DNA of 64,000 nt from Candidatus Collierbacteria bacterium RIFOXYD2_FULL_45_13 (GTDB taxonomy: Bacteria; Patescibacteriota; Microgenomatia; UBA1400; MFAQ01), in the NCBI GenBank assembly GCA_001774685.1, contig MFAS01000001.1, positions 351,557 to 415,556 on the forward strand, given 5' to 3'. This document shows, in pieces, positions 16,476 to 52,726 of this stretch; the stretch's first letter is position 1, and every line of letters starts with the position of its first letter. Made by a program: the position numbers and the translations under genes. The notes beneath the pieces are model-generated. The model had not been told where the DNA came from, searched no databases, and worked only from the letters and a program-made list of their open reading frames with translations.

Positions 16476-17003
16476 ATGAAAGACGAAAAATGCCCCAAGT
16501 GTGGTTCCCCCCTCGGAGAAATAGTGGAGACACCTTCAGGAAAAAGACTTCAGCGATGTTCCACCGGTAGTTGGAACAAAGAGACGAAAAAGTCCGAAGG
16601 CTGTGACTACGTTAAGTGGCTGGAGGTCGAACCCCAGACCCTAGACGAAAAATGCCCCAAGTGTGACTCTCCTTTGATACTTCAAGTCACCCGTTTTGGT
16701 AAAAAGATGAAAAAGTGTAGTACCAACGTTTGGAACAAAGAAACCAAAACCTCGGAAGGTTGTGATTATGTCGAGTGGATCAACGGTACCACCGAAAAGC
16801 TGGACGAAAAATGCCCACAGTGTGGCGAACCCTTGGTTCTCTTTACCACTACCGCCGGCAAGCGTCTTAAAAAGTGCTCTACTTCCGGCTGGGATCGGGA
16901 AGCCAAGAAAGCCACCGGTTGTGACTACGTACAGTGGCTCAAGGGTAACTTCAACGCTCCCGCCAACGGGGAAGAGTTCCTTCCACCTGAGGATATCTTC
17001 TAA
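16476..17003 (+). CDS. protein made of three tandem topoisomerase-type C4 zinc ribbons
   Basis: Three ~49-aa repeats of KCPxCxxPL...GK..xxCST..W...K.SEGCDYV.W (147-nt DNA period). Confidence 0.55.
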   Translation: MKDEKCPKCGSPLGEIVETPSGKRLQRCSTGSWNKETKKSEGCDYVKWLEVEPQTLDEKCPKCDSPLILQVTRFGKKMKKCSTNVWNKETKTSEGCDYVEWINGTTEKLDEKCPQCGEPLVLFTTTAGKRLKKCSTSGWDREAKKATGCDYVQWLKGNFNAPANGEEFLPPEDIF

Positions 17004-33229: not shown

Positions 33230-33673
33230 TTATCGGGCTCCCAAAATATAGGACTCCATCTGCATAGCCAAAAGTTCTTGATTCTTCCAAAGCATGTGGA
33301 ATATGTCCCTGAGCGAAACAATTCCCACCAGTTTGCCTTCGTCCAGTACCGGCATATGTCTGGACTTCTTCGTTTTCATCAGTTGCATACAGTCCATAAT
33401 GTCGCTGAAAGGCGTTACGTAAGCTGGCTCCGAGACCATAAACTTGGCCACGGTCACGGTTCTCGGATCAATCCCCTCAGCCGTTACCTTGTAGGTTATA
33501 TCTCGTTCCGAAATTATTCCCACTAGCCGCCCTTCTTCCAGTACCGGCAAAGCGCCAATTTGTTTGTCCCGTAACAGTCGTGCTGCTTCAACAATTAATG
33601 TTCCCGGGCTTACTGTGTGGACCTTGTCACCTTCAGAGTGTGCACTCTTTAACAATTGAGATACTCTTGACAT
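33230..33673 (-). CDS. CBS-domain pair protein
   Basis: Two CBS motifs; AGAGGAG RBS 7 nt upstream of MSRVSQ (Met14 of the track ORF). Confidence 0.7.
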   Translation of the reverse strand: MSRVSQLLKSAHSEGDKVHTVSPGTLIVEAARLLRDKQIGALPVLEEGRLVGIISERDITYKVTAEGIDPRTVTVAKFMVSEPAYVTPFSDIMDCMQLMKTKKSRHMPVLDEGKLVGIVSLRDIFHMLWKNQELLAMQMESYILGAR

Positions 33674-39149: not shown

Positions 39150-39150
39150 G

Positions 39151-39550
39151 GTGTTCGTCAAGCTCTATCTTATTGCCCTTCCTGTATTTTTGGCAATCGA
39201 TATGATTTGGCTGACTTTAGTTGCCAAGAATTTTTATGCCAAGCAGATCGGATTTTTAATGACAAAGAATCCAAATCTCTTGGCCGCCCTGATTTTTTTA
39301 TCTTATTTTTATTGCCGGATTGATCTTTTTTGTAATCACTCCTGCACTTGATAAAAAGATATGGACTCAAGCACTTCTGGCTGGGGCATTTTTCGGTCTC
39401 GTGACTTACGCCACATATGATCTCACAAATTTGGCCACTGTCAAAGACTGGCCGCTTCTGGTTACCATCATCGACCTTCTCTGGGGTATGACTCTCTCCG
39501 CCACCGTTTCCGCCATCACCTACTTTATCGCCACCAAAATTGGCATCTGA
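39151..39550 (+). pseudogene. DUF2177-family membrane protein interrupted by a +1 frameshift in a T7 homopolymer (~39300-39312)
   Basis: Two adjacent ORFs (39151..39351 and 39320..39550) each match half of DUF2177. Removing one T from the run restores LIFYLIFIAGLIFFVITPAL. Confidence 0.5.
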
Positions 39551-39584
39551 CCTTTTATCCAAAAACGGGCAGGGAATCCTTTTC

Positions 39585-39976
39585 TGTTGTCTGTTATAAC
39601 GAAATTCGAACTTATTTTCGGGACCATTACTAATCTATTGGCTCACCGATCAACACTTCATGTCTCGCGGTTCGCCACCGCCAGCCCTGCCGGTCCGCCT
39701 TTGGCGGAGGCGGAAACCCTTGCGCGCGATTAATAATGTATCCCGACTGCGGTCGGGATAATTGCTCTTTCGAGCAAGCGCCAGCTATCACTGTCGCATC
39801 TTTATGTTCGCCACAACTTCACATCCAGTGATTGTGGCGAAACTGTTCTCAATATATGGCTCGAATTTCAAACTCGCCATAAAATATCAGCTAGTTAGGA
39901 AAAGATTTTACTATCTGATATTCCAGAATTGAGACAGCATTTGGCCTTCAGGCCAAAGTGCCTGCTCCGCAGGCAC
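39585..39976 (+). repeat. repeat family copy 1 (~392 nt, non-coding, several hairpins)
   Basis: Near-identical to 45747..46204 and partly to 50857..50959 (inverted); no ORF. Confidence 0.6.
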
Positions 39977-40027
39977 AATAACTATTTCTGGTTGCTATGA
40001 TACACAGAAAGACATAAAATACAAACA

Positions 40028-40555
40028 ATGGAACAAATAATTTTAGCGAGACACTGTCAGACAGATCTATTAGCCTCTGGTGATAGTAGTACAAGAAGAA
40101 ACGATTCTCCTTTATCAGAGTTGGGATTGAAGCAAGCAGCTCAAGTCAGTAAGTTTGTAAACAAATTCGAATATGATGCAGTTTTTTCAAGTTTGTTTAT
40201 TCGAACGATAAAAACAGCAGAAATAATAAACGAGAACAAAAAACCTCAATTCGCCAATATTAATTTGAGTGAGTATTTTGCCGGTGACGACGGAAAAGGA
40301 AGAGAATCAACAACTATGGGAATAGCTAGAACGATGTCTTTTATTTACCCCATGTTTGATCTATACAAATCAATTGTAATTGTCGGTCACAACGCCATAA
40401 ACTCCACAATTCTTAGGTCTTTTCTTAATATGGAATTTGAGGAGGCTGAAGGCTATTTCAAATCAGTCGGTCAAGTACTGGTACTTAGACGAGATTGGCA
40501 AAAAGGAGATAAGGTTTGGCACATAGAGGACAAATTTACCCCTGACCAAGAATAA
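40028..40555 (+). CDS. histidine phosphatase (phosphoglycerate-mutase-like) family protein
   Basis: N-terminal LARHCQT (RHG) catalytic motif. Confidence 0.55.
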   Translation: MEQIILARHCQTDLLASGDSSTRRNDSPLSELGLKQAAQVSKFVNKFEYDAVFSSLFIRTIKTAEIINENKKPQFANINLSEYFAGDDGKGRESTTMGIARTMSFIYPMFDLYKSIVIVGHNAINSTILRSFLNMEFEEAEGYFKSVGQVLVLRRDWQKGDKVWHIEDKFTPDQE

Positions 40556-40556
40556 T

Positions 40557-41663
40557 TTATTTAATTGTTGAGTTTAATAGAGAGATCACCTCTTTGGCGT
40601 GAGTCTCTATAGAGAATTTATCTCTTCGCTTCTCTGATTCCAGTTCATATATTCTTCTTATCTTAGGGTCGAGTAATTTATCTATGGCCTCCGCAAATAA
40701 TTTTGTATCACCAGTTAGAGTAATAATTCCACCACTTCCTATGTATTCTGGCACCGAAGCTTCATTAAGCCCCAAACAAGCCTTGCCTTCATAAATAAAG
40801 TTTGGAATTGTTCCAGAACCCTGAAATATTTCATCTCCATCTGGTTGTCTATACGGGAATATTCCAAATGCGCTATATGAAGAAAGATATTTATATTCTT
40901 TTGAATTTAAGTATTTATCTACTACATAAATTTCAGCCTTTCCAATTATTTTTTTATCAAAGCCTAACTTTTTATACCAACCTCTTCCCGCAATAACCAA
41001 TCTCATCTTTTTATTTACATAAGTTAGTGAATTTACTAGGAATTCATGATCTTTGTAATTAGCAGGGAATCCAGGCAAATACACTGTTGGTACGCTTTCA
41101 GAATGGTTAAATGTATTTTTGAATTCTCGGATTTCGCTTTCTGATAATATTTCATGAGAATGGGTTTCGGGAAGAAAAGAAACCACCCCCGATAAAGAAT
41201 TACCGGATTGTTTTTCCATATACTTTCTAGCAAATGTTCCAAAAAATAAGTAGGACTTGAAAAATTCACATACTGCCTTTTCCACTTCTTTCTGAGTTTT
41301 ATCATCTTTGAGATATTGAGAAAATAAGTTCCTGCTTAGAAAATGGGTAAAATATATTGGATTATTTATTTTCTTTCCGATATTTGATAACACAACAGGT
41401 AGGTACTGTTCAATATCATTCTTTCCATAATGAAAAATAACTGAGTCATATTTATCAAAATCAATTCTTGAGGCGATTTTAGAAACGATCTCTTTGACTC
41501 TATCTGATGAAAGCCACTCCCTCTTTGCTACATCAAAAGCCGACTCTTCTTTTGTCGATCCATCAATATCAACTAAAATATTATGTTCGCGCAGTATCTC
41601 AGATAGTCTATTTACATAAACATCAATGCCACCGCTCGATGGGGAAATCATTAATATTTTCAT
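40557..41663 (-). CDS. putative glycosyltransferase (GT-B, GT4-like)
   Basis: KILMISPSSGG N-terminus; C-terminal EASVPEYIGSGGIITL motif; position inside a GT cluster. Confidence 0.4.
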   Translation of the reverse strand: MKILMISPSSGGIDVYVNRLSEILREHNILVDIDGSTKEESAFDVAKREWLSSDRVKEIVSKIASRIDFDKYDSVIFHYGKNDIEQYLPVVLSNIGKKINNPIYFTHFLSRNLFSQYLKDDKTQKEVEKAVCEFFKSYLFFGTFARKYMEKQSGNSLSGVVSFLPETHSHEILSESEIREFKNTFNHSESVPTVYLPGFPANYKDHEFLVNSLTYVNKKMRLVIAGRGWYKKLGFDKKIIGKAEIYVVDKYLNSKEYKYLSSYSAFGIFPYRQPDGDEIFQGSGTIPNFIYEGKACLGLNEASVPEYIGSGGIITLTGDTKLFAEAIDKLLDPKIRRIYELESEKRRDKFSIETHAKEVISLLNSTIK

Positions 41664-42739
41664 TTTAGAAGTTCTTCATATACCTTTAAGCTTTCATCAA
41701 TCATATGCTCCCTATGAAATTCCGCATTGAGCCTATCATAATTCACTTTATATTTAGACAATTCCTTTATTTTCCTTAGGATGTTTTCAACATTACTTGG
41801 GTCTACATACTCAATCGCTTCATTTGGTTGAAACTCTTTATATACCTGACAATCTTCGTTTACTAACGCAGGCAAGCCAAGTGCTAGTGCTTCAGCTAAT
41901 GCTAATCCAAAACCCTCGACTCTAGAGGTTGACAAAAAGACATCGCAGTTCTTCCAGATATTAACTTGATCTTGTCTCGCTAGGTTGTTAAGGATTACGA
42001 CATTTTCTTTTTTTAGATCATCTCGCAATACCTCTTCAATTGAATTTCCAATATTCAGAATCCAATTTATATCATTTGGAGATTCAGCAATTAGTACCTT
42101 TAATAGGTCAAAGCCCTTCATTAGGGTAGTTTTTCCACACCAAAAAACATTGATTTTGTCTCGAGCAATACATTCAGGTATGCGTACTGATTCTGGAATA
42201 ATTAAAGTATTCGTATCAATGCTGTTGTGGATTACACGGACGTCCTTGAGGCCGTATTTTTTCATAATATCTTTTTTGGCAAACTCACTAACGGCTAAAA
42301 CCATATCGGCATTTAGACACAGTTCTTTTTCCAGTTGAGCCAAATTATCCAAGTCGATCCCGAAAAGGGTTGTGGCGCTCGGATCAGATCTCACCACCAC
42401 CCTTGCGAACCTACTTTGGCGTTTTGAGTAGTCTAGTAGTTCAAATTTCCAGTTAGAGCACTCTACAATGTCAGGTTTGAACTTCTCAACCACCTCCGAA
42501 ACCATTTCTGAATACAAAATAGGGTCTTTGGTAGTTGGAAGGGTAACTATGTTGATCCCAGGCATGGAAAACTCCCTCTGGGTAATACAGCTTACTCTCC
42601 ACCCGCTACTCGTCAAACCAGCCATAATAGCCTTGAAAAGCACGCAAACTCCTCCTCGGTCAATGTCCCCAATGTCCTTGTGTACGAAGCAAATTGATTT
42701 CATATGGTTTAGTAGTATAATTATATAGGATGAAAACAA
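41660..42739 (-). CDS. glycosyltransferase family 4
   Basis: EGFGLALAEALALGLPAL motif. Confidence 0.75.
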   Translation of the reverse strand: MFSSYIIILLNHMKSICFVHKDIGDIDRGGVCVLFKAIMAGLTSSGWRVSCITQREFSMPGINIVTLPTTKDPILYSEMVSEVVEKFKPDIVECSNWKFELLDYSKRQSRFARVVVRSDPSATTLFGIDLDNLAQLEKELCLNADMVLAVSEFAKKDIMKKYGLKDVRVIHNSIDTNTLIIPESVRIPECIARDKINVFWCGKTTLMKGFDLLKVLIAESPNDINWILNIGNSIEEVLRDDLKKENVVILNNLARQDQVNIWKNCDVFLSTSRVEGFGLALAEALALGLPALVNEDCQVYKEFQPNEAIEYVDPSNVENILRKIKELSKYKVNYDRLNAEFHREHMIDESLKVYEELLK

Positions 42740-43779
42740 AGCTGTCCATGCCTGAATTCACGTTTCTTCTTATCAGTAGAAACGCCTCAAATACTATTCT
42801 AAAGACTATCCAGTCAATTAGAAAGCTGTCTCGTGGCAAGAATATCGAAATTATACTGGTGGATGATCATTCGGAGGATGCCACTGTTTCTATGGCCAAA
42901 CCACTCTGCGACAAGGTTTTGGTAAACAAAGCTAGAATGGGGATTGGCTTTTCTAGGCAAAAAGGGTTAGCCTTGGCATCAGCCAATAGAGTGTTTATCA
43001 TCGATTCCGACATTGAAATAACATCAATAAATTTTAAGAAACTGGATCAGTTATTTTCTGAAGGCATTGTGGCTATTTCAGGTAGTTATAATTCCAACGA
43101 CAATCAGTCAAACTGGAATAAAGCTCTTGATCTGAGAAGAAAATATATTTATTTCAAGGATAAGAGGGTGTCCATAGCGGACAAGAGCCGATATGTAACT
43201 TTTTCAGGAGGATTTTGTGTCATTGATATAGAGAAGATTGGTGGAATAAAATATTTTGGAAAGAAAGACACTTCGGCAGAAGATGTTTTATTTCAGCTAA
43301 AGCTATTACATCGTGGCCTAAAGACTGCTTATTCACCGGCATTGGTGGGTATTCACCACCACCATCGAAACACCAGAAGTTTTTTCCAAAAAGTTATGGC
43401 CGATTCCGTCGCCTATCCATGGTTGATGTCCTTATGTCTAAAAAATAAAATAAGTATGCCAGTTTTGGAACAAGCCTTCAATTTTCCAATTTTTCTGATC
43501 ACCTCATTTTTTATACCTAATCTTCAAATAAAATTACTATTGCTAATACTAGAGTTTTTCCCACAGATATACATATTATTCACAGAAAGATTCAGTCCTA
43601 ATTCCATAAGATTGCTTATTTATGCCATTGCTCAATCTTTAATAAAGGTATTAGCCTGCGCTAAAGATTTAATTTTTGGTAAATATAGTTCGTCAGACAG
43701 GATTCTATATATAAAAAATCTATTAACCTCTGATTTTATTTCAAAAACTAACTGGTTTAAGCAGACATTTATCCAATAA
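42730..43779 (+). CDS. glycosyltransferase family 2 with C-terminal TM region
   Basis: FLLISRNASNTILKTIQS...ILVDDHSED GT2 motifs. Confidence 0.7.
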   Translation: MKTKLSMPEFTFLLISRNASNTILKTIQSIRKLSRGKNIEIILVDDHSEDATVSMAKPLCDKVLVNKARMGIGFSRQKGLALASANRVFIIDSDIEITSINFKKLDQLFSEGIVAISGSYNSNDNQSNWNKALDLRRKYIYFKDKRVSIADKSRYVTFSGGFCVIDIEKIGGIKYFGKKDTSAEDVLFQLKLLHRGLKTAYSPALVGIHHHHRNTRSFFQKVMADSVAYPWLMSLCLKNKISMPVLEQAFNFPIFLITSFFIPNLQIKLLLLILEFFPQIYILFTERFSPNSIRLLIYAIAQSLIKVLACAKDLIFGKYSSSDRILYIKNLLTSDFISKTNWFKQTFIQ

Positions 43780-43785
43780 AAAAAT

Positions 43786-44913
43786 ATGGAATTTGAAGTA
43801 AACAAGGAAATAAACCAGTGTAACCCGTACGAAAGATCTGTGGGCGGGTCATTGTTTCGAATCTATGCCACCGAAGCGCAGATTAAATACGTAGACAGAG
43901 TCTTAGAAGGTTCGATAGATGAGTTCAGGGACAGTACCCAAGAGGCTATTGAAGTCGTTTGTACAGACAACACTGAGCTTTCAGAAGATATATTAAGCAA
44001 ATCATCTCTACAAGAAAACTCATCAGCTCTAATCGCCGGAGAGATTGAAGGTGGTAAATTTGTCAGTCTAAAAGGTGTATTCATGGATATTCTAATGTCA
44101 AAAACCGACAATACCCCGTTAACTCATATTTCAATAAGCCAAAATCCTGAATACGGAGCAATTACCTTTATTAAGTCGTATTTGTTAAATAAATATGTAA
44201 ACCAGCAGGAGGCTCTGGTGTTTCACGCAGGGTCGATGACATCATTAGACAATTCATCAAGCTTCGTAATATCTGCCTTAAGTCATCACATTAACAACGG
44301 TGATAACTCAGGAAAAACAACCGCCATATTAGCAAGTTGTGCTAGAGAAAACGCCAACTTCGCATATTCGTCAAACGATGAAGTTATTTTATCTATTTTA
44401 GATAACGCCACTGAGGTTAAAGCGCTTCCGTTTCCAAGTCAGATCACGATAAGGGGAAAATCATTAGAAACGTTAAAGACTGATGGAGTAAATTTCAATC
44501 TCGAAGATTGGAATGGTGTTGATAGTATTACTGGTCAATCTGTAAGTGTGGTCACTCCAAGAGGGGTGATTGAAGCGGGATATCAGGTCTTACCCGTGAA
44601 TCCATCCAGATTAGATTGGTGCTTCATAGAAATTGACCCAAACTTGGCTGATTATTCTTGTGTAGAAGCAGATCCGCAAGCATCAAGACAGCTTTTTTGG
44701 GGTGCAGTTTCAAAAAGAAGAATGAATCAAGCCTTAAACCCATTGTTTTTAGGAGAAACAAGTAACACCCAAGCTTATGATCCAATTACATGTCAGCCAA
44801 AGGTGGATGAAATATTCAATCGTTTGGTCTTATCCGGTACAAAATTTTACATTCTTCGAGGAGGAGCAGACAGGGATAAATTAAACGCAATCTTTACTAA
44901 GTTAAAGCGATAA
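43786..44913 (+). CDS. hypothetical protein with P-loop-like GDNSGKTT (HPr-kinase-C-like?)
   Basis: FHAGSMTS...GDNSGKTTAILA; no firm family. Confidence 0.3.
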   Translation: MEFEVNKEINQCNPYERSVGGSLFRIYATEAQIKYVDRVLEGSIDEFRDSTQEAIEVVCTDNTELSEDILSKSSLQENSSALIAGEIEGGKFVSLKGVFMDILMSKTDNTPLTHISISQNPEYGAITFIKSYLLNKYVNQQEALVFHAGSMTSLDNSSSFVISALSHHINNGDNSGKTTAILASCARENANFAYSSNDEVILSILDNATEVKALPFPSQITIRGKSLETLKTDGVNFNLEDWNGVDSITGQSVSVVTPRGVIEAGYQVLPVNPSRLDWCFIEIDPNLADYSCVEADPQASRQLFWGAVSKRRMNQALNPLFLGETSNTQAYDPITCQPKVDEIFNRLVLSGTKFYILRGGADRDKLNAIFTKLKR

Positions 44914-44916
44914 AAG

Positions 44917-45708
44917 ATGAAATACAAAGCTTTATTGCTCGATATTGATGGCGTCTTGCTTAACAAGGAGGATGATACGGATCAGAAAACTTGGGAAGCA
45001 ATAAATGATCTCATCGCCCGTGGTATTCAGGTATCCTTTGTAACTTCGCGCCCATACGGACTAGCGTCACATCTTGTCAAAAAGATATCTGACCACGGTA
45101 TCCATGTATTTGAAAATGGAAACTTTATTTATGAACCAAAAGACAAAAAGGTTCATAAAGCTGAGTACTTAGAAACACAGCTCTCCGGAGAAGTTATTCA
45201 GATGGTAAAACCTCATGAAGGAAATATAAAAATAGGGTACTCGTTGGGAGACAAGTTTATGGTTAATGAAAACTACTTCGATAATTTGAAGTCATATATG
45301 CCGGTAAACGACTACTCAAAAATAGATGAATATTGTGAATATAACTACGTTTCAATTTGGCTCAAAGATATTCCAAGTTATTTCGGCAAAAAAATTATTG
45401 AGATTGTAAAAAACAATGCCCGTATTAATATCTATCATCAAAACGAACTTCTTGATTCGGTATTTATCCACCCAGAATCAGGCAATAAATTGGAGGGGGT
45501 AAAAGAGTTATCAAAATTAACGGGAAGATCTCTAGAGTCCTCGGTCTTTATCGGAAATGATTCGGATGATATCTGCTTGGCTCGTGAGGTCGGACTTTCG
45601 GCGACTCCAGCAAATGGCATTGATGAACTCAAGAAAGTTTCAGTTATTGTCTCAAGCTATGAGTATTCACTTTCAATAAGCGATATCATACAAAAAGTGT
45701 GGGGATAA
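44917..45708 (+). CDS. HAD-superfamily hydrolase, subfamily IIB (Cof-like sugar phosphatase)
   Basis: LLDIDGVLL (DxD) motif I; GNDSDD motif IV. Confidence 0.7.
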   Translation: MKYKALLLDIDGVLLNKEDDTDQKTWEAINDLIARGIQVSFVTSRPYGLASHLVKKISDHGIHVFENGNFIYEPKDKKVHKAEYLETQLSGEVIQMVKPHEGNIKIGYSLGDKFMVNENYFDNLKSYMPVNDYSKIDEYCEYNYVSIWLKDIPSYFGKKIIEIVKNNARINIYHQNELLDSVFIHPESGNKLEGVKELSKLTGRSLESSVFIGNDSDDICLAREVGLSATPANGIDELKKVSVIVSSYEYSLSISDIIQKVWG

Positions 45709-45746
45709 ACTATCCGCGCGGGCGACATATCCGACTGATGCCGGAA

Positions 45747-46204
45747 AATCTCAATCTGTTGTCTGTTATAACGAAATTCGAACTTATTTTCGGGACCATT
45801 ACTAATCTATTGGCTCACCGATCAACACTTCGTGTCTCGCGGTTCGCCACCGCCTGCCCTGCCGGTCCGCCTTTGGCGGAGGCGGAACCACTTGCGCGCG
45901 ATTAATAATGTATCCCGACCTCATCATCATTGCGAGGTTCGGTGCTCCGAGCCGTGGCAATCTCACACCATTCTGATTCGGTCGTGATGGTTGCTCTTGC
46001 GAGCAAGCGCCAGCGTTCGCTGTCGCATCTTTATGTTCGTCCCAACTTCGCATTCAGCGATTGGGACGAAACAGTCTCAATATATGCTCAAATTAGCAAT
46101 TTCGCCATAAAATATCAGCTAGTTAGGAGAATATTTTACTAGCTGATATTTAGGACTTGAGACAGCATTTGGCCTGTCGGCCAAAGTGCCTGCTTCGCAG
46201 GCAC
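45747..46204 (+). repeat. repeat family copy 2 (~458 nt; ~60-nt insertion relative to copy 1)
   Basis: Alignment to copy 1 by eye, with compensatory substitutions in two stems. Confidence 0.6.
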
Positions 46205-46220
46205 AAAATATTTTGAGTAA

Positions 46221-46250
46221 TTGACAGTAATGTATACGTTGTCATACAAT
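46221..46250 (+). promoter_or_regulatory. sigma70-like promoter TTGACA-N18-TACAAT overlapping direct ATGTATAC repeats (probable RHH operator); near-leaderless start at 46259
   Basis: ttgacagtaatgtatacgttgtcatacaatgtatacatATG. Confidence 0.4.
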
Positions 46251-46258
46251 GTATACAT

Positions 46259-46657
46259 ATGACAACCAACAAAGTTCTCAACGCCAGAGTTTCAGACAAG
46301 CTATACGAAAAAATATCTGATAAAGCTAAGAAAAATAGAACTACTGTTTCTAACTTAATCAGAAACTTAGTCGAAGATGCATTGGAGATCCACGAAGATT
46401 TTCATGAAGCCGTAGACAAGAAAATCAGGAAATATCTTTCAGAAACTGAAAAACAAGACATTTTGGGATACCAGGAGATGGTACTTGTTAAAGATACTGA
46501 ATGCGACAACTGTGGTATGTTACTCAAAGTATCAGAAACAGCATATTTTGCCTTTTTCGAAGACAGGGATGTTAAGGCTATTCTCTGTGCCACCTGTAAA
46601 AACGAAAGTTTACAACCGGAGAAAACAAAAGCGCATGAGAATACTTCAAATAAGTAA
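46259..46657 (+). CDS. ribbon-helix-helix (CopG/Arc-like) DNA-binding protein with C-terminal CxxC...CxxC zinc ribbon
   Basis: N-terminal VSDKLYEKISDKAKKNRTTVSNLIRNLVEDAL RHH pattern. Confidence 0.45.
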   Translation: MTTNKVLNARVSDKLYEKISDKAKKNRTTVSNLIRNLVEDALEIHEDFHEAVDKKIRKYLSETEKQDILGYQEMVLVKDTECDNCGMLLKVSETAYFAFFEDRDVKAILCATCKNESLQPEKTKAHENTSNK

Positions 46658-48008
46658 GGAGTTACTTGCCCTAAGTATCCAAACTAAGCCTTGGGATAAA
46701 GATGGGTTTGCCTCTAAAACAAATGCTATCTTGATTCGAAAGTCCCTAGAGAGATTGGGTTCTGTATTTGTGAAGTTGGGGCAGATGTTGGCATTGCGGC
46801 CAGATTTTATCCCTGTCATTTTTTGCAATGAGCTATACAAACTACTAGATCAAGTTCCCCCTTTCGAGTCAAAACTTGCACTAGACATCCTTCGACATGA
46901 GCTCGGAAATAATAAATTCTCAAAACTTCTAGAACTCAATCCCAATCCTGTTGCCTCAGCTTCCTTTGCACAAGTTCATAAAGCAAAATTGGCTAATGGT
47001 GATGTTGTGGCTGTCAAAATTCAAAGACCAAATGTTGAACTGGTGATTCACGGAGATTTAGCAATTATGAGGTTCATGTCAAAATTATTTGATTTTTGGT
47101 TCCACCCAGCAAATAAGTTAATAAACATCGTGGAAGAGTTTGAAGCCTGGACAAAAGATGAGCTTGATTATTCACTAGAGGCCAGCAATATAGAAAAGTT
47201 TAATGACACTGCCGAGCTTGTGGGAGATGGTATTCGTGGTCCAAATGTATACAGGGAACTAAGTACATCTAAGGTGATAACAATGGAATTCATTGATGGT
47301 TACAGCTTAACCAAAATAATTACCCTTTTGCAAGAAGGAAATAAGAAACAAGTTCGAGAGCTTGGTTTTGATGGTAAAGATATTGTCGATAAATTAATCA
47401 AAAATATGTTGGAAATGTCCCATGTTCATGGTTTCTTCCATGCGGACCCTCACCCAGCCAATATTATTTTCACCCTAGAAAAAGAACTGGTATTAATTGA
47501 TTTTGGCATAGTGGGCAATCTTTCAAGAAAAGAAAGAACCCTAATGCTAAGGTACTTCCGAACACTAATGGCAGGCAATGCTAAGGATTCGTTTGATTCG
47601 TTACTTGAACTTTGTGGTAATAAACAACCAGAAAATTTAGACCAAGTCAAAGAACGATATTCTACTTTGATTGATAAGTTTGCGGCAACATTCAGTTCAA
47701 AAACTTACTTGGAGCAACAAATAAAGTCTGGCCCCATTCTAGCCGAAACACTTAGTCTTATGCAAGGTAATGGTATGAAAGTTCCAGTTAGCATTGTCAG
47801 ATACTTCAAGGCATTCGAAACAGTCGAGGGTCTGATTTTTGCACTTTACCCAAAACTACAAATCCAAGATATGCTCAAAGAATTTAGGCGGGTATCAATA
47901 ATAAATATCGTCGATTCCATCCCCACAAAATTTGATTCGGTAAACATTGATTCCTTAATGCTCAAGATTATCGATTCTGTGGAAAAAAGTTTGTTACTTG
48001 ACGACTAG
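46635..48008 (+). CDS. ABC1/UbiB-family atypical protein kinase
   Basis: FVKLGQMLALRPDFIP motif; kinase catalytic motifs. The track ORF (46485) is trimmed to Met51, which overlaps the upstream gene by 23 nt. Confidence 0.7.
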   Translation: MRILQISKELLALSIQTKPWDKDGFASKTNAILIRKSLERLGSVFVKLGQMLALRPDFIPVIFCNELYKLLDQVPPFESKLALDILRHELGNNKFSKLLELNPNPVASASFAQVHKAKLANGDVVAVKIQRPNVELVIHGDLAIMRFMSKLFDFWFHPANKLINIVEEFEAWTKDELDYSLEASNIEKFNDTAELVGDGIRGPNVYRELSTSKVITMEFIDGYSLTKIITLLQEGNKKQVRELGFDGKDIVDKLIKNMLEMSHVHGFFHADPHPANIIFTLEKELVLIDFGIVGNLSRKERTLMLRYFRTLMAGNAKDSFDSLLELCGNKQPENLDQVKERYSTLIDKFAATFSSKTYLEQQIKSGPILAETLSLMQGNGMKVPVSIVRYFKAFETVEGLIFALYPKLQIQDMLKEFRRVSIINIVDSIPTKFDSVNIDSLMLKIIDSVEKSLLLDD

Positions 48009-48047
48009 GAAGACTAGCGGAACAACGTTAAGGGTTACAATAAAAGT

Positions 48048-48344
48048 ATGAGCAAAGCATTTCGACTACTTTTTATTACAATACTAATATTTTCAGCATA
48101 TCATCTGATCCGTGATTTACTCACAAATTTTGGAATTCATAACTATATTGTAGATTTTGCACATCGTCCTCACTTGTGGTGTGGAAAATTTTATCCTTGG
48201 GTTTGTCATTGGATTACAGTTCCTCCTGAGATTTTTACGTTAATAGTGTCAATAATCGTATTAAAGCGAAACAGGGTAGGAGTACTTGGGTTTTTAGTTT
48301 TATTACAAGTACCACTGTGGTTATTATTAGTCTTGTTACCTTAG
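48048..48344 (+). CDS. small 3-TM membrane protein
   Basis: ORF track; hydropathy. Confidence 0.3.
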   Translation: MSKAFRLLFITILIFSAYHLIRDLLTNFGIHNYIVDFAHRPHLWCGKFYPWVCHWITVPPEIFTLIVSIIVLKRNRVGVLGFLVLLQVPLWLLLVLLP

Positions 48345-48350
48345 CAAATA

Positions 48351-48917
48351 ATGTTTCGCTCACTTTTCCAAAAAATTGTAAGACAAAGATCTGAAGTTGT
48401 TATTAGTCGCATCTTTCCATTTCTCAAAGACTCAAAAAAGATTTTAGATATTGGTTCTGGGACGGGTGATGTAGCATTTCTGCTAGGGGAACATGGAAAA
48501 GACGTAACGCCTGTTGATGTTAGCGATTTTCATGGTCCTAGACTTGTAAAAACCACGATCTACGACGGACGAAAACTACCATTTCCGAATAACTCATTTG
48601 ATACTGCCATGCTGCTTATGGTTATGCACCACACCCCTAACCCAGAAATTGTCTTTGATGAAGCATCGAGGGTAGCCAAAGAATTAGTAATTATTGAAAC
48701 TTCATACACGACTCCGATAAACAGATGGTTTACTATAGTCTCTGATGCTCTAGGAAATCTTCGCCTTGAAGCCTTTTGGTCATCATATAAATCTGATTCT
48801 GAGTGGAAGGAACTTTTTGCAAAAAAGAAATTCGAAATAGTTAAAACTCAAAAATATAACGACAGAAATTTTGGTCTCCCATTTCTACACATCGCCTATT
48901 ATTTACGACGAAAATAG
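48351..48917 (+). CDS. class I SAM-dependent methyltransferase
   Basis: ILDIGSGTGDV motif I. Confidence 0.65.
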   Translation: MFRSLFQKIVRQRSEVVISRIFPFLKDSKKILDIGSGTGDVAFLLGEHGKDVTPVDVSDFHGPRLVKTTIYDGRKLPFPNNSFDTAMLLMVMHHTPNPEIVFDEASRVAKELVIIETSYTTPINRWFTIVSDALGNLRLEAFWSSYKSDSEWKELFAKKKFEIVKTQKYNDRNFGLPFLHIAYYLRRK

Positions 48918-49555
48918 TTTTTAACCCACTTCCTCCCAAACTTAATCCATCCAAAATATATTGTGCCAGACGCATAAGCAAAAATCCAACTGATAGCAGT
49001 GAATGATACAGCATCGGTAACTTTAAGAGATATTAGGTACCAAATTATCGTGGCGGGTATCATGCCCAAAGTCGATACCATAAAATATTGAGAGAATTTG
49101 AGATTAGTCAGTCCAAAAGCATAAGAAATTACATCGTGAAATTCCTTCATAAATAATCGAAATACAAAGAGAGTTTGTAATCCATAGTCTTTTGTCAGTC
49201 CGTCTAGCTTTTCTAAGGCGTCCAAACCAGCCACTTTTTCTACTACCTTTCTACCCCAAATCCTTCCTATCCAAAAGTTTGTTATCGAGGCAATCACGGC
49301 AGCGATAAAGGCATAGACCACAGACATTTGTCCGTATAGATAAAATCCAGCGAACAGAAACGGTGAACCACTTAAGGGGGCAGCCACATTTGTTATCCAT
49401 AAGCAGAAAATAAGTAGCACAACACCCCACGGTCCAGCACTTGCCATAGTTGTTCTTATTGTCGTTTCCGGTATCATCGTGCCAATCAAAATCATGATTA
49501 AAAAAGTGAGAACGATCAGAAATATGGGCAAATAGTTTCTTTTGTGAATCTTCAT
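48899..49555 (-). CDS. DedA/TVP38-family membrane protein
   Basis: PLSGSPFLFAGFYLYG motif; multi-TM. Confidence 0.65.
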   Translation of the reverse strand: MKIHKRNYLPIFLIVLTFLIMILIGTMIPETTIRTTMASAGPWGVVLLIFCLWITNVAAPLSGSPFLFAGFYLYGQMSVVYAFIAAVIASITNFWIGRIWGRKVVEKVAGLDALEKLDGLTKDYGLQTLFVFRLFMKEFHDVISYAFGLTNLKFSQYFMVSTLGMIPATIIWYLISLKVTDAVSFTAISWIFAYASGTIYFGWIKFGRKWVKNYFRRK

Positions 49556-49617
49556 GCGATTGGTAAATTATACCCCGCCGATTCTAACTGTTTTGATCAT
49601 TCTCGATCCGTCAATCA

Positions 49618-49642
49618 GCCAAAGTGCCTGCTTCGCAAGCAC
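49618..49642. repeat. solo copy of the repeat-family terminal hairpin (GCCAAAGTGCCTGC-TTCG-CAAGCAC)
   Basis: Matches the 3' end of repeat copies 1 and 2. Confidence 0.4.
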
Positions 49643-49651
49643 GCCTAAATC

Positions 49652-50689
49652 TTATTTGATTGGAGTAAGAGGTAATTGACTGGAAATATATGAAGCAATT
49701 ACTTGCTGGGCAATGGGTTCTACTCTTCGGCCAACCCACGATGCTGCTTTTCCTATATTTCCAAGTAATAACTTAATTTTTTCAATATCATGCGGTTTCT
49801 TGATTTCATCTTGTAACGCACCAAGATTTTTCATTATTTCTTCTTTATTCTCTGGATTTTTCTCGTCAATTTCCTTACGAATACTATCAAAACTTGTGTC
49901 AATATCAGCATTTATGTTTACTGGACTATTGTTTCCAGTAGTTATGTTGATATTGTGTCCATATCTTACTTTTTTAATCATTTCCTTTTTATCATTGCTT
50001 TTAAGACTAATTCCTGTGAGAAATTGTACTCCCTCTGGTTTTATCTTGATACTAATATATGATCCTGTTGAGTCTCTCAATATTTCAATAAAATTATTAA
50101 ACTCTAGAATTTCTAAATTTGAATCTATAGTATTTTTATCAAAGGGAAAGATAGATCTCATAAGGTCAATATGTAAATTCGTGGAATAACTATCTTTTCT
50201 GTGCATATATAGCGGTTCCAATATCGCCTTTGCCATAAGTTCATCGGTCATATGGTCGCCGAACATTTTGATCTGAAATGTTTTTTCCATCGAATCATGG
50301 ACTTTGATATTGTGAATTCTAGAATCTTGCTGACGTCCATCCTCGAGGTCTCGAATAAACCTAAATATGAAACTTTCACTTTGACTTGTAAGGACATCTT
50401 TATCAAATGGAAGGTAGTGTAGTAAGTTCACTAATGCTTCTTCAAGAAATGGTTCTTGGGGAAACTTTTTACTTTTTGGGTCTGCCCACAAATAATCTAA
50501 GAGCATAGACTGTTGGAAGCATATCTTCCCAACAAGCTCCTTATCATTTTCATCATATATTCTAAAAGCGGCAATCCATACTAAAAAATTTCCGTTTACC
50601 TGATTGTTTCTTCCCGTGAGATTTACTGCGTGCGCCGTGTATATGCCACTCCCATTCCTAAATTTTATTTTTTTGAATTCGTCATCCAT
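49652..50689 (-). CDS. hypothetical protein (345 aa), island cargo next to the recombinase
   Basis: AT-rich ORF; no recognisable family. Confidence 0.4.
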   Translation of the reverse strand: MDDEFKKIKFRNGSGIYTAHAVNLTGRNNQVNGNFLVWIAAFRIYDENDKELVGKICFQQSMLLDYLWADPKSKKFPQEPFLEEALVNLLHYLPFDKDVLTSQSESFIFRFIRDLEDGRQQDSRIHNIKVHDSMEKTFQIKMFGDHMTDELMAKAILEPLYMHRKDSYSTNLHIDLMRSIFPFDKNTIDSNLEILEFNNFIEILRDSTGSYISIKIKPEGVQFLTGISLKSNDKKEMIKKVRYGHNINITTGNNSPVNINADIDTSFDSIRKEIDEKNPENKEEIMKNLGALQDEIKKPHDIEKIKLLLGNIGKAASWVGRRVEPIAQQVIASYISSQLPLTPIK

Positions 50690-50856
50690 AATTTACAGCA
50701 ATTCTATATCTTTCAGTATCATAAGTATATGCGTTGTTGATATTTTCAATATAATTTAGTTAATAAAAATCCCGAGCTCGAACACTATAGGAAAAAACCA
50801 ATTTTTGCGTTTTCTGTCATGGCTACTGCGGTAGCCATCGTTCGAACCGATGTTAC

Positions 50857-50959
50857 GGCAGGCGGTGGCGAACCGCGAGACACGAAAGTGTTGAGCGGTG
50901 AGCCAATAGATTAGTAATGGTCCCGAAAATAAGTTCGAATTTCGTTATAACAGACAACA
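50857..50959 (-). repeat. repeat family copy 3 (partial, inverted; first ~100 nt of the core)
   Basis: Reverse complement aligns to the 5' part of copies 1 and 2, then diverges into a unique hairpin ATGGCTAC-TGCG-GTAGCCAT (50824-50843). Confidence 0.5.
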
Positions 50960-50989
50960 CTTCGGGATAAATCGGGAGAGTCGGGGTAA

Positions 50990-51022
50990 GTCGCCCGCGC
51001 GCCCGCCCACGCGCGGAGCGAC
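50990..51022. repeat. 33-bp GC-rich palindromic hairpin, left inverted repeat flanking the recombinase gene
   Basis: GTCGCCCGCGCGCCCGCCCACGCGCGGAGCGAC; the reverse complement recurs at 52563-52596 with 1 mismatch. Confidence 0.55.
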
Positions 51023-51130
51023 GCTCAGTTCTTTAATAATCTGTATCTTTCAAAAAGCGACAGAAAACGCAAAAATAAATTCGGTAAAACTTCTGCGGAA
51101 GTTTTGGGTCTTTTATGGTTAAATGAATGT

Positions 51131-52726
51131 ATGACCAAGTACATTGCGTACTGTCGGAAATCAACAGACGAGAAAGATCGACAAGTTTTGTCGATCGAAG
51201 CCCAGATTGCCGAGCTAAAAGAATTCGCCAAGAGGGAGAAGCTTCACATTGTCGAAATTTTAGTTGAAAGTAAAACCGCCAAAGAGCCGGGGAGGCTTGT
51301 CTTTCAACAAATGATAAAGCTTCTCCAGTCCGGCCAAGCCAACGCCATTCTTTCATGGCACCCAGATAGACTAGCCAGAAATAGTGTCGACGGAGGTCAG
51401 ATAATATATCTCGTCGACACAGGTGTAATTACAGATTTGAAGTTTCCCTCGTTCTGGTTTGAGAACACCCCTCAAGGCAAGTTTATGCTAAACATTGCCT
51501 TTGGCCAGTCTAAATACTATGTCGATAACCTCTCTGAGAATGTTAAGCGCGGTAATCGCCAAAAATTAAGGAATGGCGTTTGGCCGAACAAAGCTCCTCT
51601 TGGCTACAAAAATATTGTCGAGAACAAATCAATTGACATCGATCCGGAAGAAGCCAAAGTCGTCAGAAAAGCTTTTGAAATGTTTGCTGATGAAAAATAC
51701 TCTTTCATTCACATTGCTCGCTTCATGGCACAAGGGGGAATAACAAGCGCCCTCGGGAAGCCTTTGAAGATTGACCAAATCAAAAGTATGCTCCAGAAAA
51801 AATTCTACATCGGCACGATGGAATTTAATGGCGAAGAGTTCAAGGCTTCCCATCCAACTTTCATCAGCAAACAACTTTTTGAAAGAGTCCAAAGTAACAT
51901 TCAAAAGTTTTCTAGACCAAGGGAAACCAGTCACGACTTTGCTTTTTCCGGTTTGATGCGGTGTGGGGAGTGCGGCGCTACCATCACGGCTGAGCAACAC
52001 ATCAAGCACTACAAAAGAACCAATCGCACAGTCAAATATATTTACTATCGCTGTACAAAGAAAATAAAGGCCTGTTCTCAGCCGTATCTGGAAGAAAACA
52101 ATCTCTTTGATCAACTGAAGAGTGAGATTGGCCCCTCCGCCCTCCCCAAATCTTGGCAACGTGAGTGGAAAACTCGATTGGCACAGGATAAAGTCCTAGC
52201 GGATGAGTCCAAAGAAAAAGTTCTCGCCCTGCTTCATACCCAAACCGAAAGTTTTGATACCAAACTAAATACTCTTCTCGATGGATATCTGGACGGCACA
52301 GTTGACTCCGACATCTACAAAACCAAAAAGAGTCAGCTGTTCCAAGAAAAGCTCAAACTTGAGAGCCAGATATCCAAAACAGAAGAAGAAGGTTGTAGTT
52401 GGCTCGAACCTTTTTCTAAGTTTGTAAATAGCGCCATACTGGCGCAAAAAATCGCGCGCAAGGGTTCCGTGGACTCAGAACTGCGGTTCTTCGTCCAAAA
52501 CATCGGTTCGAACTTCTTTTTGAAAGATAAACAGATTATGGTGGAATGGGAAAAGCCCTTCGCATCGCTCCGCGCGTGGGCGGGCGCGCGGGCGACTACC
52601 CCGAAAACGGGCGGGGAATCCCAGAGTGTTGCCGGACTAGGATTCGAACCTAGAATATTCGCCTCCAGAGGGCGACGTCCTACCATTAGACGACTCGGCA
52701 ATACGAGCTCTATTTTACCTCATTAG
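51131..52726 (+). CDS. large serine recombinase (integrase/resolvase type)
   Basis: N-terminal catalytic YCRKSTDEKDRQVLSIEAQ motif, recombinase domain, Cys4 zinc-ribbon CGECG...YRCTKK, coiled-coil region. The ORF has no stop until 52726, so the C-terminus runs through the right IR and antisense tRNA-Gln and the true end is uncertain. Confidence 0.75.
   Translation: MTKYIAYCRKSTDEKDRQVLSIEAQIAELKEFAKREKLHIVEILVESKTAKEPGRLVFQQMIKLLQSGQANAILSWHPDRLARNSVDGGQIIYLVDTGVITDLKFPSFWFENTPQGKFMLNIAFGQSKYYVDNLSENVKRGNRQKLRNGVWPNKAPLGYKNIVENKSIDIDPEEAKVVRKAFEMFADEKYSFIHIARFMAQGGITSALGKPLKIDQIKSMLQKKFYIGTMEFNGEEFKASHPTFISKQLFERVQSNIQKFSRPRETSHDFAFSGLMRCGECGATITAEQHIKHYKRTNRTVKYIYYRCTKKIKACSQPYLEENNLFDQLKSEIGPSALPKSWQREWKTRLAQDKVLADESKEKVLALLHTQTESFDTKLNTLLDGYLDGTVDSDIYKTKKSQLFQEKLKLESQISKTEEEGCSWLEPFSKFVNSAILAQKIARKGSVDSELRFFVQNIGSNFFLKDKQIMVEWEKPFASLRAWAGARATTPKTGGESQSVAGLGFEPRIFASRGRRPTIRRLGNTSSILPH
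52563..52596. repeat. 33-bp GC-rich palindromic hairpin, right inverted repeat
   Basis: Reverse complement of the 50990-51022 sequence (1 mismatch). Confidence 0.55.
52629..52700 (-). tRNA. tRNA-Gln (anticodon CUG)
   Basis: Cloverleaf folded by hand. Acceptor arm 6/7 bp with a U1:A72 pair. D-loop AAUGGUA. Anticodon stem UCGCC/GGCGA with loop CUCUGGA. T-arm CUAGG-UUCGAAU-CCUAG. CCA is not encoded. Confidence 0.7.

Follow-up and report, generated by a model that had tools for sequence, protein, structure and literature searches.

A probable array of integrative units placed by a large serine recombinase at the 3' end of a tRNA-Gln gene in a Candidatus Collierbacteria genome

We analysed a stretch of 64,000 nucleotides (nt) from Candidatus Collierbacteria bacterium RIFOXYD2_FULL_45_13, a groundwater bacterium with a small genome (contig MFAS01000001.1, positions 351,557 to 415,556; hereafter the window, numbered from its first letter), and found that it carries a block of foreign genes of about 13 kb at the end of a tRNA-Gln gene. 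We propose that positions 39557-52631 are most probably an array of integrative units that a large serine recombinase (LSR) has placed at the very 3' terminus of tRNA-Gln(CUG). Four sites of one design lie in the array, one of its two cargo blocks is absent from another assembly of the same organism, its recombinase backbone has spread horizontally between species, and relatives of the recombinase are associated with the 3' ends of many different tRNA genes.

A serine recombinase gene convergent with tRNA-Gln

The tRNA-Gln(CUG) gene is the only tRNA gene in the window (ARAGORN; Rfam tRNA model, 56.2 bits; coordinates of the features are collected in Table 1). A preliminary description, made from the sequence letters alone, had placed its 3' end opposite a large serine recombinase gene, and both the tRNA predictions and the Pfam domains of the neighbouring protein bear this out. 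The LSR open reading frame (ORF) extends through one arm of the recombination site, the P arm described below, into the tRNA gene on the opposite strand, making the two genes convergent.

The encoded protein has the domain set of the serine-integrase class, that is an N-terminal resolvase catalytic domain (Resolvase, PF00239, 4.3e-20), a recombinase domain (Recombinase, PF07508, 1.6e-16) and a zinc ribbon (Zn_ribbon_recom, PF13408, 1.5e-9). Pfam showed no tyrosine recombinase in the island, where the LSR, a serine enzyme, is the sole recombinase. A search at E<1e-20 gave 7796 homologues of the LSR, and the LSR ORF is intact in seven other assemblies. Its best NCBIfam match is the CcrB model at 103.7 bits, far below the cutoff of 900, and a search of the Protein Data Bank gave a match limited to the catalytic domain.

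Anatomy of the att-like sites

Two direct copies of a 0.4-kb repeat, A (39583-39978) and B (45755-46206), lie in the array. They are 98% identical over the first 165 nt, which include the part that we call the head, and 84-85% identical over the remainder; repeat B also carries a 57-nt palindromic insertion (~45920-45978) inside a hairpin loop. A third copy of the head is inverted (50857-50959) and 99% complementary to A over 74 nt. The LSR gene itself is bracketed by inverted repeats (50984-51034 and 52552-52602). The inverted head copy, the inverted repeats around the LSR gene and the arm remnants to the left of A and B were absent from the preliminary description. The first two of these, the inverted copy being part of an attP-like site, are the most unusual features of the locus.

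Together these elements define four sites, A, B, C (inverted) and T (at the tRNA), which are built on one plan of arm, TGTTG and arm, with the same 5-nt core in all four. We write the sites in one orientation and call the recombinase-side arm P and the repeat head H. Site A consists of a left arm ending in AAAACGGGCAGGGAATCCTTTTC, the core and the head. In site B the left arm is CCGCGCGGGCGAC-ATATCCGACTGATGCCGGAAAATCTCAATC, and in site C it is a GC hairpin followed by TTACCCCGACTCTCCCGATTTATCCCGAAG; both continue through the core into the head. Site T has the GC hairpin and a spacer on its left and the 3' part of tRNA-Gln on its right. The left arm of A is a remnant of P type, which matches the P spacer of three other loci (L010, L011 and L094, CGAAAACGGGCGGGGAATCCCTTTC), and the left arm of B starts 5 nt past the stop codon of the HAD gene. 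In the other assemblies of this organism site C shares 67 nt at 100% identity with the arm at T. Judged from this arrangement, A and B would be attL-like junctions, T an attR and C an intact, inverted attP.

The preliminary description had read the repeat, with a tRNA-like head, as an att-like boundary. The junctions are indeed of att type, but the head is neither a tRNA nor a fragment of one. It gave no ARAGORN or Rfam match, even at E<=10, and aligning the heads to the tRNA showed that the two have in common only the 5-nt core TGTTG and the T-loop-like ATTCGAAC. We considered and rejected a tRNA or pseudo-tRNA, since heads aligned globally with their cognate tRNAs score like shuffled sequences (z ~0). 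Neither is the 0.4-kb repeat a known structured RNA in Rfam, with no match at the gathering threshold and only chance-level matches to small nucleolar RNAs at E up to 10.

The spacing of the T-loop motif differs between head and tRNA. In head A, ATTCGAAC is set about 4 nt further out from the core than is TCGAAC in the tRNA, and across the family this T-loop hexamer starts 12 nt from the junction in the tRNA arm and 16 nt in the head. In phage serine integrases the distance of the half-site motif from the centre is about 4-5 bp greater in attP than in attB, and a displacement of about 5 bp of the motif bound by the zinc-ribbon domain reportedly separates attP from attB half-sites. The head thus appears to be an attP half-site with a T-loop mimic rather than a displaced tRNA fragment.

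Survey of the recombinase family

To place the locus in a wider context we compared LSR relatives using one genome per species. The survey comprises 80 loci, nearly all from Patescibacteria, with 42-97% amino acid (aa) identity to the LSR. A convergent tRNA gene is found at the 3' end of the LSR gene in 57 of the 80, and these tRNAs have 13 identities (Gln, Glu, Lys, Leu, Trp, Arg, Tyr, Pro, Val, Gly, Ser, Ile and Ala). Among the 23 loci where no tRNA was seen, 21 end less than 500 nt past the LSR gene. The LSR adjoins the tRNA in every tRNA-bearing locus and cargo never lies in between.

The sites recur as well. Of 61 loci, 54 have inverted repeats of 44-158 nt around the LSR gene, and in 36 of them these are 100% identical. 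In 46 of the 54 loci with such repeats the right arm reaches 0-7 nt into the tRNA; five of the other eight have a left arm cut by the contig start or a gapped alignment. About 30 of 38 loci also have, 0.7-7.5 kb upstream, a head copy in direct, A-like orientation, so that the layout of A, inverted C and T recurs. The hybrid junctions (X/TGTTG/H at A, P/TGTTG/tRNA at T) were found again in 27 aligned loci of the family. In the P arm a GGAAAT-like motif is conserved at 10-15 nt from the junction, while the trailer arm of attB is not conserved.

The left arms of the A sites across the family are unrelated AT-rich trailers, some of which retain the native discriminator-CCA end of a tRNA (for example TGGTGA in L042); at T this end is replaced by element sequence. 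Such a pattern is the hallmark of insertion at the terminal bases of the tRNA gene. Near-identical heads are found in elements at different tRNAs (L025 at Arg, L027 at Tyr and L029 at Arg), indicating that the head travels with the element. A minimal transposon resembling an insertion sequence, with a palindromic attP, was considered and rejected, because the head moves with the element and a separate attL with a native trailer exists.

Taken together, these comparisons suggest that tRNA targeting by a serine recombinase is a property of the whole family and not a quirk of the locus in the window.

Variants in the population and in related species

Exact-protein look-ups recovered many further assemblies of the same organism, including GCA_001774675.1 (contig MFAP01000001, 1.09 Mb) and several aquifer metagenomes. 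In one contig (L008, JGI 3300009031) the left flank of A runs directly into repeat B and block 2, and only one repeat copy is present. Block 1 is missing exactly between the cores, with the junction within the first 77 nt of the head, and the head has B-type bases throughout although it is preceded by the A-left flank. Block 1 is therefore a separable unit. Its loss may have come about by site-specific or by homologous recombination, both of which would fit the L008 sequence. In another assembly (L007:6640-6940, equivalent to window 45757-45860) head B contains two GC-rich mini-insertions of 20 and 19 nt, the first a perfect hairpin, CCTGCCTGCCGGCAGGCAGG.

The exact-protein look-up gave no match for the LSR of the window, while neighbouring proteins did match. 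The reason is a patch at the 3' end of the LSR gene that is found in the window only. This patch (about 55 nt) holds all 22 differences, and the remaining LSR gene is identical in seven assemblies. It replaces the P spacer and part of the 3' acceptor and T arm of the tRNA by the versions of the L010/L011 lineage, creating an A6.C67 mismatch in the acceptor stem and lowering the identity of the C/T inverted repeat to 86%. Because the patch covers both sides of the core it does not derive from a single serine-recombinase crossover; two readings are left, homologous exchange of a short tract with a related element and a consensus of chimeric origin. Breaks of contigs at the repeats were discarded as evidence of rearrangement, since assemblies break in any case at inverted repeats that exceed the assembly k-mer.

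Orthologues of the LSR in relatives stand beside quite other genes. Two of them (95% aa identity in L010, 89% in L011) lie at the same tRNA-Gln in the same MgsA/Lon neighbourhood, and a third (74%, L012) lies at a tRNA-Gln(UUG) elsewhere in its genome. The cargo next to these orthologues is entirely different from that of the window, consisting of an AAA_13 ATPase and a peptidase in L010 (7425-9608), pP_pnuc_1, an HNH nuclease and a C39 peptidase in L011 (7254-8652), and a helix-turn-helix (HTH) protein and a reverse transcriptase in L012 (8341-9634). All three sets have a defence-like look. The LSR module (50800-52719) is 92.8% identical to that of L010 and 86% to that of L011, compared with 69-72% for the adjoining MgsA and Lon genes. 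Since the module is this much more similar than the flanking core genes, and the cargo is unrelated, we conclude that the backbone is horizontally mobile, and it appears to move between species with exchangeable cargo. In L011 the left flank of A consists of a motif called M (see below) and 5 nt of P.

Proposed mechanism and alternative explanations

We propose that the LSR crosses over within the short core TGTTG, which corresponds to the last bases of the tRNA gene. The attP would consist of P, core and H, in which P is a stretch of 60-150 nt that also encodes the C-terminus of the LSR and includes the GC hairpin, and H is the T-loop-mimic head. The attB would be the native trailer, the core and the acceptor and T arm of the tRNA. 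After integration the far end would read trailer, core and H (site A, attL) and the side next to the LSR would read P, core and tRNA (site T, attR), with the tRNA left intact. The current complete unit would comprise head B, its tail, block 2, site C, the LSR and P. The block 1 unit, made of head A, its tail, six genes and a 43-nt P remnant, is recombinase-less, and an extra 28-nt P remnant lies to the left of A. The array could have arisen by repeated integration at the tRNA, with older units pushed to the left and their recombinases lost, or by mobilisation of LSR-less units in trans. The anatomy of the sites, the presence or absence of block 1, the horizontal spread of the backbone and the link of the family with tRNA 3' ends are observed directly; that the LSR catalysed these joints, as well as the order of events and the mode of excision, we infer.

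Tandem accretion of elements at the tRNA had already been put forward in the preliminary description. It gains support from the P remnants to the left of A and B, as successive integrations beside the tRNA would leave such arms, and also from the absence of block 1 in L008 and from the mobile backbone.

Several points weigh against our proposal. The data fit older-to-left accretion, insertion of an LSR-less unit at attL and homologous loss of block 1 equally, and that loss could be plain homologous recombination between heads that are 98% identical. To our knowledge, insertion at an attR-like site (P/core/tRNA) or at an attL is not a canonical reaction of serine integrases. All the other assemblies have block 2 and the LSR at the tRNA. 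The preliminary description had suggested looking for an empty tRNA-Gln site in close relatives; a metagenome scan for this tRNA with a left flank other than P gave no empty site of this species, and no junction of an excised circle was found in the scan either. No recombination directionality factor was found, there being no ORF conserved across the minimal elements. Finally, an inverted attP retained after integration is not predicted by the standard model.

As for the directionality factor, elements can be as small as about 2.6 kb and some have no ORF except the LSR. Its absence may be real, as it seems to be for the Ccr recombinases, for which we know of no separate directionality factor. 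The metagenome scan gave two contigs, one from another LSR-bearing strain and one from a distant relative with an unoccupied tRNA-Gln (L095:6435-6513). In the latter a protein-coding gene begins about 25 nt from the tRNA 3' end, and the site is a possible model of an empty attB.

One alternative is that the LSR module is fixed at the tRNA and acts as a platform for cassettes, with recombinase-less units carrying a minimal attP entering and leaving the attL side in trans, much as in integrons or the staphylococcal cassette chromosome (SCC). Several observations would suit this scheme. The P remnants of 28 and 43 nt are about the size of a half-site and abut the stop codons of genes, the gain or loss of block 1 occurred exactly between cores, the LSR is beside the tRNA in every locus with no cargo in between, and orthologous LSRs at the same tRNA-Gln have different cargo in relatives. 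However, most loci of the family have a single direct head copy and arrays are uncommon, a reaction between attP and attL is not known for serine integrases, and the LSR module itself has clearly been transferred between species. In addition, the left flank of A in L011, with its M motif and 5 nt of P, resembles the deletion scar of a former LSR module. We regard this alternative as possible but unlikely.

The locus might instead be static and vertically inherited, its repeats being copies of a structured non-coding RNA or of a regulatory module, the deletion of block 1 an ordinary event and the recombinase domesticated or inactive. The tail is strongly structured and covarying, no empty site was found, and the orientation of both LSR and tail is invariant, all of which would be expected of such a locus. 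We nevertheless consider it very improbable: between hosts with about 70% identity in their core genes the backbone is 86-93% identical, the cargo has a foreign composition and is wholly different between relatives, near-identical heads occur at different tRNA species, native CCA-bearing trailers have been displaced to the A sites, and the LSR ORF is intact in all assemblies.

We give even less credence to an invertible switch in the style of Hin/Gin or of the FLP recombinase of the 2-micron plasmid, in which the LSR would switch expression by inverting either the C-T segment that holds its own gene or the cargo segment that lies between A or B and C. Inverted sites do surround the recombinase gene and are perfect in most genomes, inverted heads flank the cargo, the arms evolve in concert, and a C site joined to a real tRNA in L017 indicates that C can recombine. 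Yet none of the 57 tRNA-bearing loci has the LSR flipped relative to the real tRNA, the tail is on the A side in 8 of 8 loci, and all assemblies of this population have one orientation.

A prophage or phage-satellite remnant at the tRNA is hardly credible, for although large serine recombinases are common phage integrases, the cargo has no phage structural or replication genes, elements range down to about 2.6 kb with the LSR as sole ORF, and the family is nearly absent from viral contigs (4 weak matches, compared with more than 592 in species-representative genomes).

The retained inverted site and the structured tail

If recombination of attP x attB is conservative, no attP should persist once the element has integrated. 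Every member of the family nevertheless keeps an attP, inverted, between the cargo and the LSR, and its arms change together with those of the other sites. The 30 nt of P beside the core are the same at C and T in 27 of 27 loci, while their mean identity between loci is 35%; even between elements with identical heads this stretch is just 50-60% identical. The H arm is 99.6% identical between A and C.

Site C is itself enclosed by a further inverted repeat, M, of which the window has two exact 18-nt copies (0.1 expected by chance). In 25 of 27 loci a similar exact repeat is found that measures 11 nt or more, with a median of 17, and its sequence varies by lineage; 1.9% of shuffled sequences reach 11 nt. 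The element thus contains three nested pairs of inverted repeats (H, P and M) that are complementary within an element and divergent between lineages. In an alignment of eight relatives, RNAalifold revealed compensatory changes in the M stem (seen in L016 and L022), in a small hairpin next to it, in the distal hairpin of the head and in the GC hairpin. Folded as single-stranded DNA and compared with shuffled sequences, the site C region has a z of -7.7 and the tail a z of -10.1.

The tail of the repeat is conserved in its own right. It is 82-87% identical in L010, L011, L014, L016, L018 and L022, even where the LSR is just 58-59% identical, and it folds into about 8 hairpins and one long-range helix with 17-19 covarying pairs in seven sequences. 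A covariance model (R1, shorter than the whole tail) places it on the A side in 8 of 8 tail-bearing loci. This model finds the tail in a close subfamily only, and the tail is not family-wide. Its hairpin loops contain lineage-specific palindromic inserts of 45-80 nt with the motif CATTGCGAGG...GCAATCT, which look like repetitive extragenic palindromes or miniature inverted-repeat transposable elements; we located them in the window (45920-45978), in L011 (~1170-1215) and in L014, L016 and L022.

Site C might serve as an operator maintained by gene conversion, as a splint in single-stranded transfer or as part of a structured RNA leader. It is conceivable that the H, P and M pairs and the tail belong to a single-stranded intermediate, taken up by competence, in which C, by pairing with the two ends of the element, would splint a duplex attP and the tail would serve as origin for the single strand; alternatively they would form an RNA leader that carries attP and controls or assists the recombinase. 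Patescibacteria rely on competence machinery. We consider this pair of ideas a long shot, but such a single-strand or RNA-leader mode, if true, would be one not known for any serine integrase.

An unusual arrangement was observed in L017 (9802-11588), where the LSR gene is flanked on both sides by real tRNA-Glu genes (UUC and CUC), which are convergent and each have a P arm attached. The internal attP looks to have recombined with the second tRNA here, which suggests that C is able to recombine.

Comparison with known systems

A close parallel is SCC, including SCCmec, in which LSRs of the Ccr family insert cargo at the 3' terminus of a conserved housekeeping gene, which survives the insertion, and in which tandem composites, recombinase-less units bounded by repeated att sites and variable cargo occur as well. 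The target there is rlmH and the recombinases are the pair CcrA and CcrB, whereas here there is one recombinase and the target is a tRNA gene end. Accordingly the locus cannot be assigned to SCCmec, having no Ccr-family assignment and a tRNA as its target instead of rlmH. We know of no internal inverted attP, nor of perfect inverted repeats around the recombinase gene, in SCC.

Tycheposons of Prochlorococcus (Hackl et al., bioRxiv 10.1101/2020.12.28.424599) have tyrosine recombinases in 474 of 501 cases and leave partial tRNA copies. They resemble the present elements in being small, cargo-bearing and located beside specific tRNA genes of a streamlined genome, and in building islands as newcomers push older, degenerating units off the tRNA. 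They differ in that the recombinase here is an LSR and that the overlap between repeat and tRNA is just the core of 2-9 nt and the T-loop mimic. Islands of tyrosine integrases at tRNA genes (Islander/TIGER) likewise share the tRNA anchor, the adjoining recombinase and the restoration of the target by element sequence; apart from the enzyme family, the difference is that crossover here is at the last bases (discriminator/CCA) and theirs is in the anticodon or T loop. With no tyrosine recombinase and no displaced partial tRNA copy at its far end, the array is neither an Islander-type island nor a tycheposon. It also differs from integrons, as it lacks a tyrosine integrase and has 0.4-kb repeats with an LSR half-site.

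Phage serine integrases (phiC31, Bxb1, the A118/LI integrase) have the same domain architecture, short att sites and a small shared core. Unlike the elements described here, they use a single attP and protein-coding targets; here only the tRNA half of attB is conserved, and a second attP, inverted, is retained in the element. The FLP/FRT system of the 2-micron plasmid and Hin/Gin similarly have a recombinase gene between long identical inverted repeats that hold the target site, but here the enzyme is an LSR, there are no isomers in 57 loci and the repeats end exactly at the integration junction.

Serine integrases are regarded as targeting protein-coding genes, and tRNA islands as the domain of tyrosine integrases. 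The preliminary description called a serine recombinase atypical for a tRNA island. This is in line with Mageeney et al. 2020 (PMC7192596), who saw 14 cases among 297 and according to whom the use of t(m)RNA genes by a serine integrase had been unreported until then, but it does not hold within the family studied here, in which such targeting is the rule (57 of 80 loci). We found no published description of this tRNA-targeting LSR family in the searchable literature. The family is new to the literature searched, and its architecture, attL, cargo, inverted attP, LSR and attR, departs from the standard model.

With thousands of homologues and more than 590 loci, the family systematically targets the last bases of many tRNA genes of Patescibacteria. 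It represents a vehicle for the flux of genes (glycan, membrane and defence-like cargo) in ultra-small genomes whose mobile elements are poorly known. It also offers a panel of natural serine integrases with a predictable attB defined by the tRNA, which is of interest for genome engineering. The invariant second, inverted attP and the concerted evolution of its arms may point to a hitherto unknown step of control or transfer.

Cargo genes and composition

Both cargo blocks are AT-rich and each has one copy of the 0.4-kb repeat at its left, in agreement with the preliminary description. Their G+C content is 0.364 (block 1) and 0.362 (block 2), compared with 0.450 +/- 0.010 (minimum 0.418) in 5-kb windows outside, which puts both about 8 standard deviations below the genome. 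Tetranucleotide distances also set the blocks apart, at 0.31 and 0.34 respectively against 0.14 +/- 0.027 outside. The composition of the region, which the preliminary description had proposed to check, is thus non-uniform, and the low-GC blocks are clearly compositionally foreign accessory cargo.

The gene content is as first listed, according to Pfam and, for block 2, also the gene calls of other assemblies (Table 1). The exception is the 375-aa protein of block 1, which had been labelled a P-loop protein and has no match in Pfam, NCBIfam or PADLOC. A PADLOC search of the cargo gave no defence system; PD-T4-6 was matched by the ABC1 kinase, via the generic kinase fold only.

Table 1. Positions of the array features in the window
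Feature	Position	Strand	Evidence or remark
A-left arm, 28-nt P-type remnant ATCCAAAAACGGGCAGGGAATCCTTTTC	39557-39584	+	6 nt past DUF2177 stop codon
Core TGTTG, site A	39585-39589	+	attL-like, left end of island
Head of repeat A, H arm and distal hairpin	39590-39747	+	98% identical to head B; H putative attP P' half-site
Tail of repeat A	39750-39978	not assigned	hairpin-rich conserved non-coding module
Cargo block 1	39979-45713		six genes
His_Phos_1 (block 1)	40028-40555	+	Pfam
GT1-like (block 1)	40557-41663	-	Pfam, weak match
GT4 (block 1)	41660-42739	-	Pfam
GT2 (block 1)	42730-43779	+	Pfam
375-aa protein (block 1)	43786-44913	+	no family
HAD/Hydrolase_3 (block 1)	44917-45708	+	Pfam
B-left arm, 43 nt	45714-45756	+	13 nt of GC hairpin (CCGCGCGGGCGAC) and 30-nt spacer; aligned with P arms of C and T
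Site B	45757-46206	+	core TGTTG 45757-45761, head, tail of repeat B 45979-46206
Cargo block 2	46207-50800		
RHH (block 2)	46259-46657	+	Pfam
ABC1 kinase (block 2)	46635-48008	+	Pfam
98-aa membrane protein (block 2)	48048-48344	+	
Methyltransferase (block 2)	48351-48917	+	Pfam
VTT/DedA (block 2)	48899-49555	-	Pfam
345-aa protein (block 2)	49652-50689	-	no assigned family
M(+)	50801-50818	+	outer arm of exact 18-nt inverted repeat around site C
Site C, intact, inverted, attP-like	50857-51034	-	head H 50857-50954, core CAACA 50955-50959
Inverted P arm of site C	50960-51034	-	GC hairpin 50990-51022
M(-)	51059-51076	-	inner arm of repeat around site C, in LSR 5' leader
LSR gene, 531 aa	51131-52726	+	Pfam domains
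P arm at site T, right inverted-repeat arm	52552-52626	+	GC hairpin 52564-52596, spacer 52597-52626
Window-only patch	52598-52650	+	22 differences from seven other assemblies
Core TGTTG, site T (putative attR)	52627-52631	+	overlaps tRNA gene 3' end
tRNA-Gln(CUG), probable integration target, B' half-site	52628-52700	-	ARAGORN, Rfam

Additional observations

The gene to the left of site A, for a DUF2177 membrane protein (39150-39550, + strand), has a frameshift in a poly-T run at about 39291-39297, and other assemblies likewise call just a 66-aa piece of it. Two further repeats are coding. At 16479-16937 there are three tandem units of 159-162 nt, 63-80% identical, each of which encodes a Cys-x2-Cys motif (KCPKCG). 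At 33295-33549 two 60-nt segments, 72% identical and 195 nt apart, probably reflect a tandem domain duplication.

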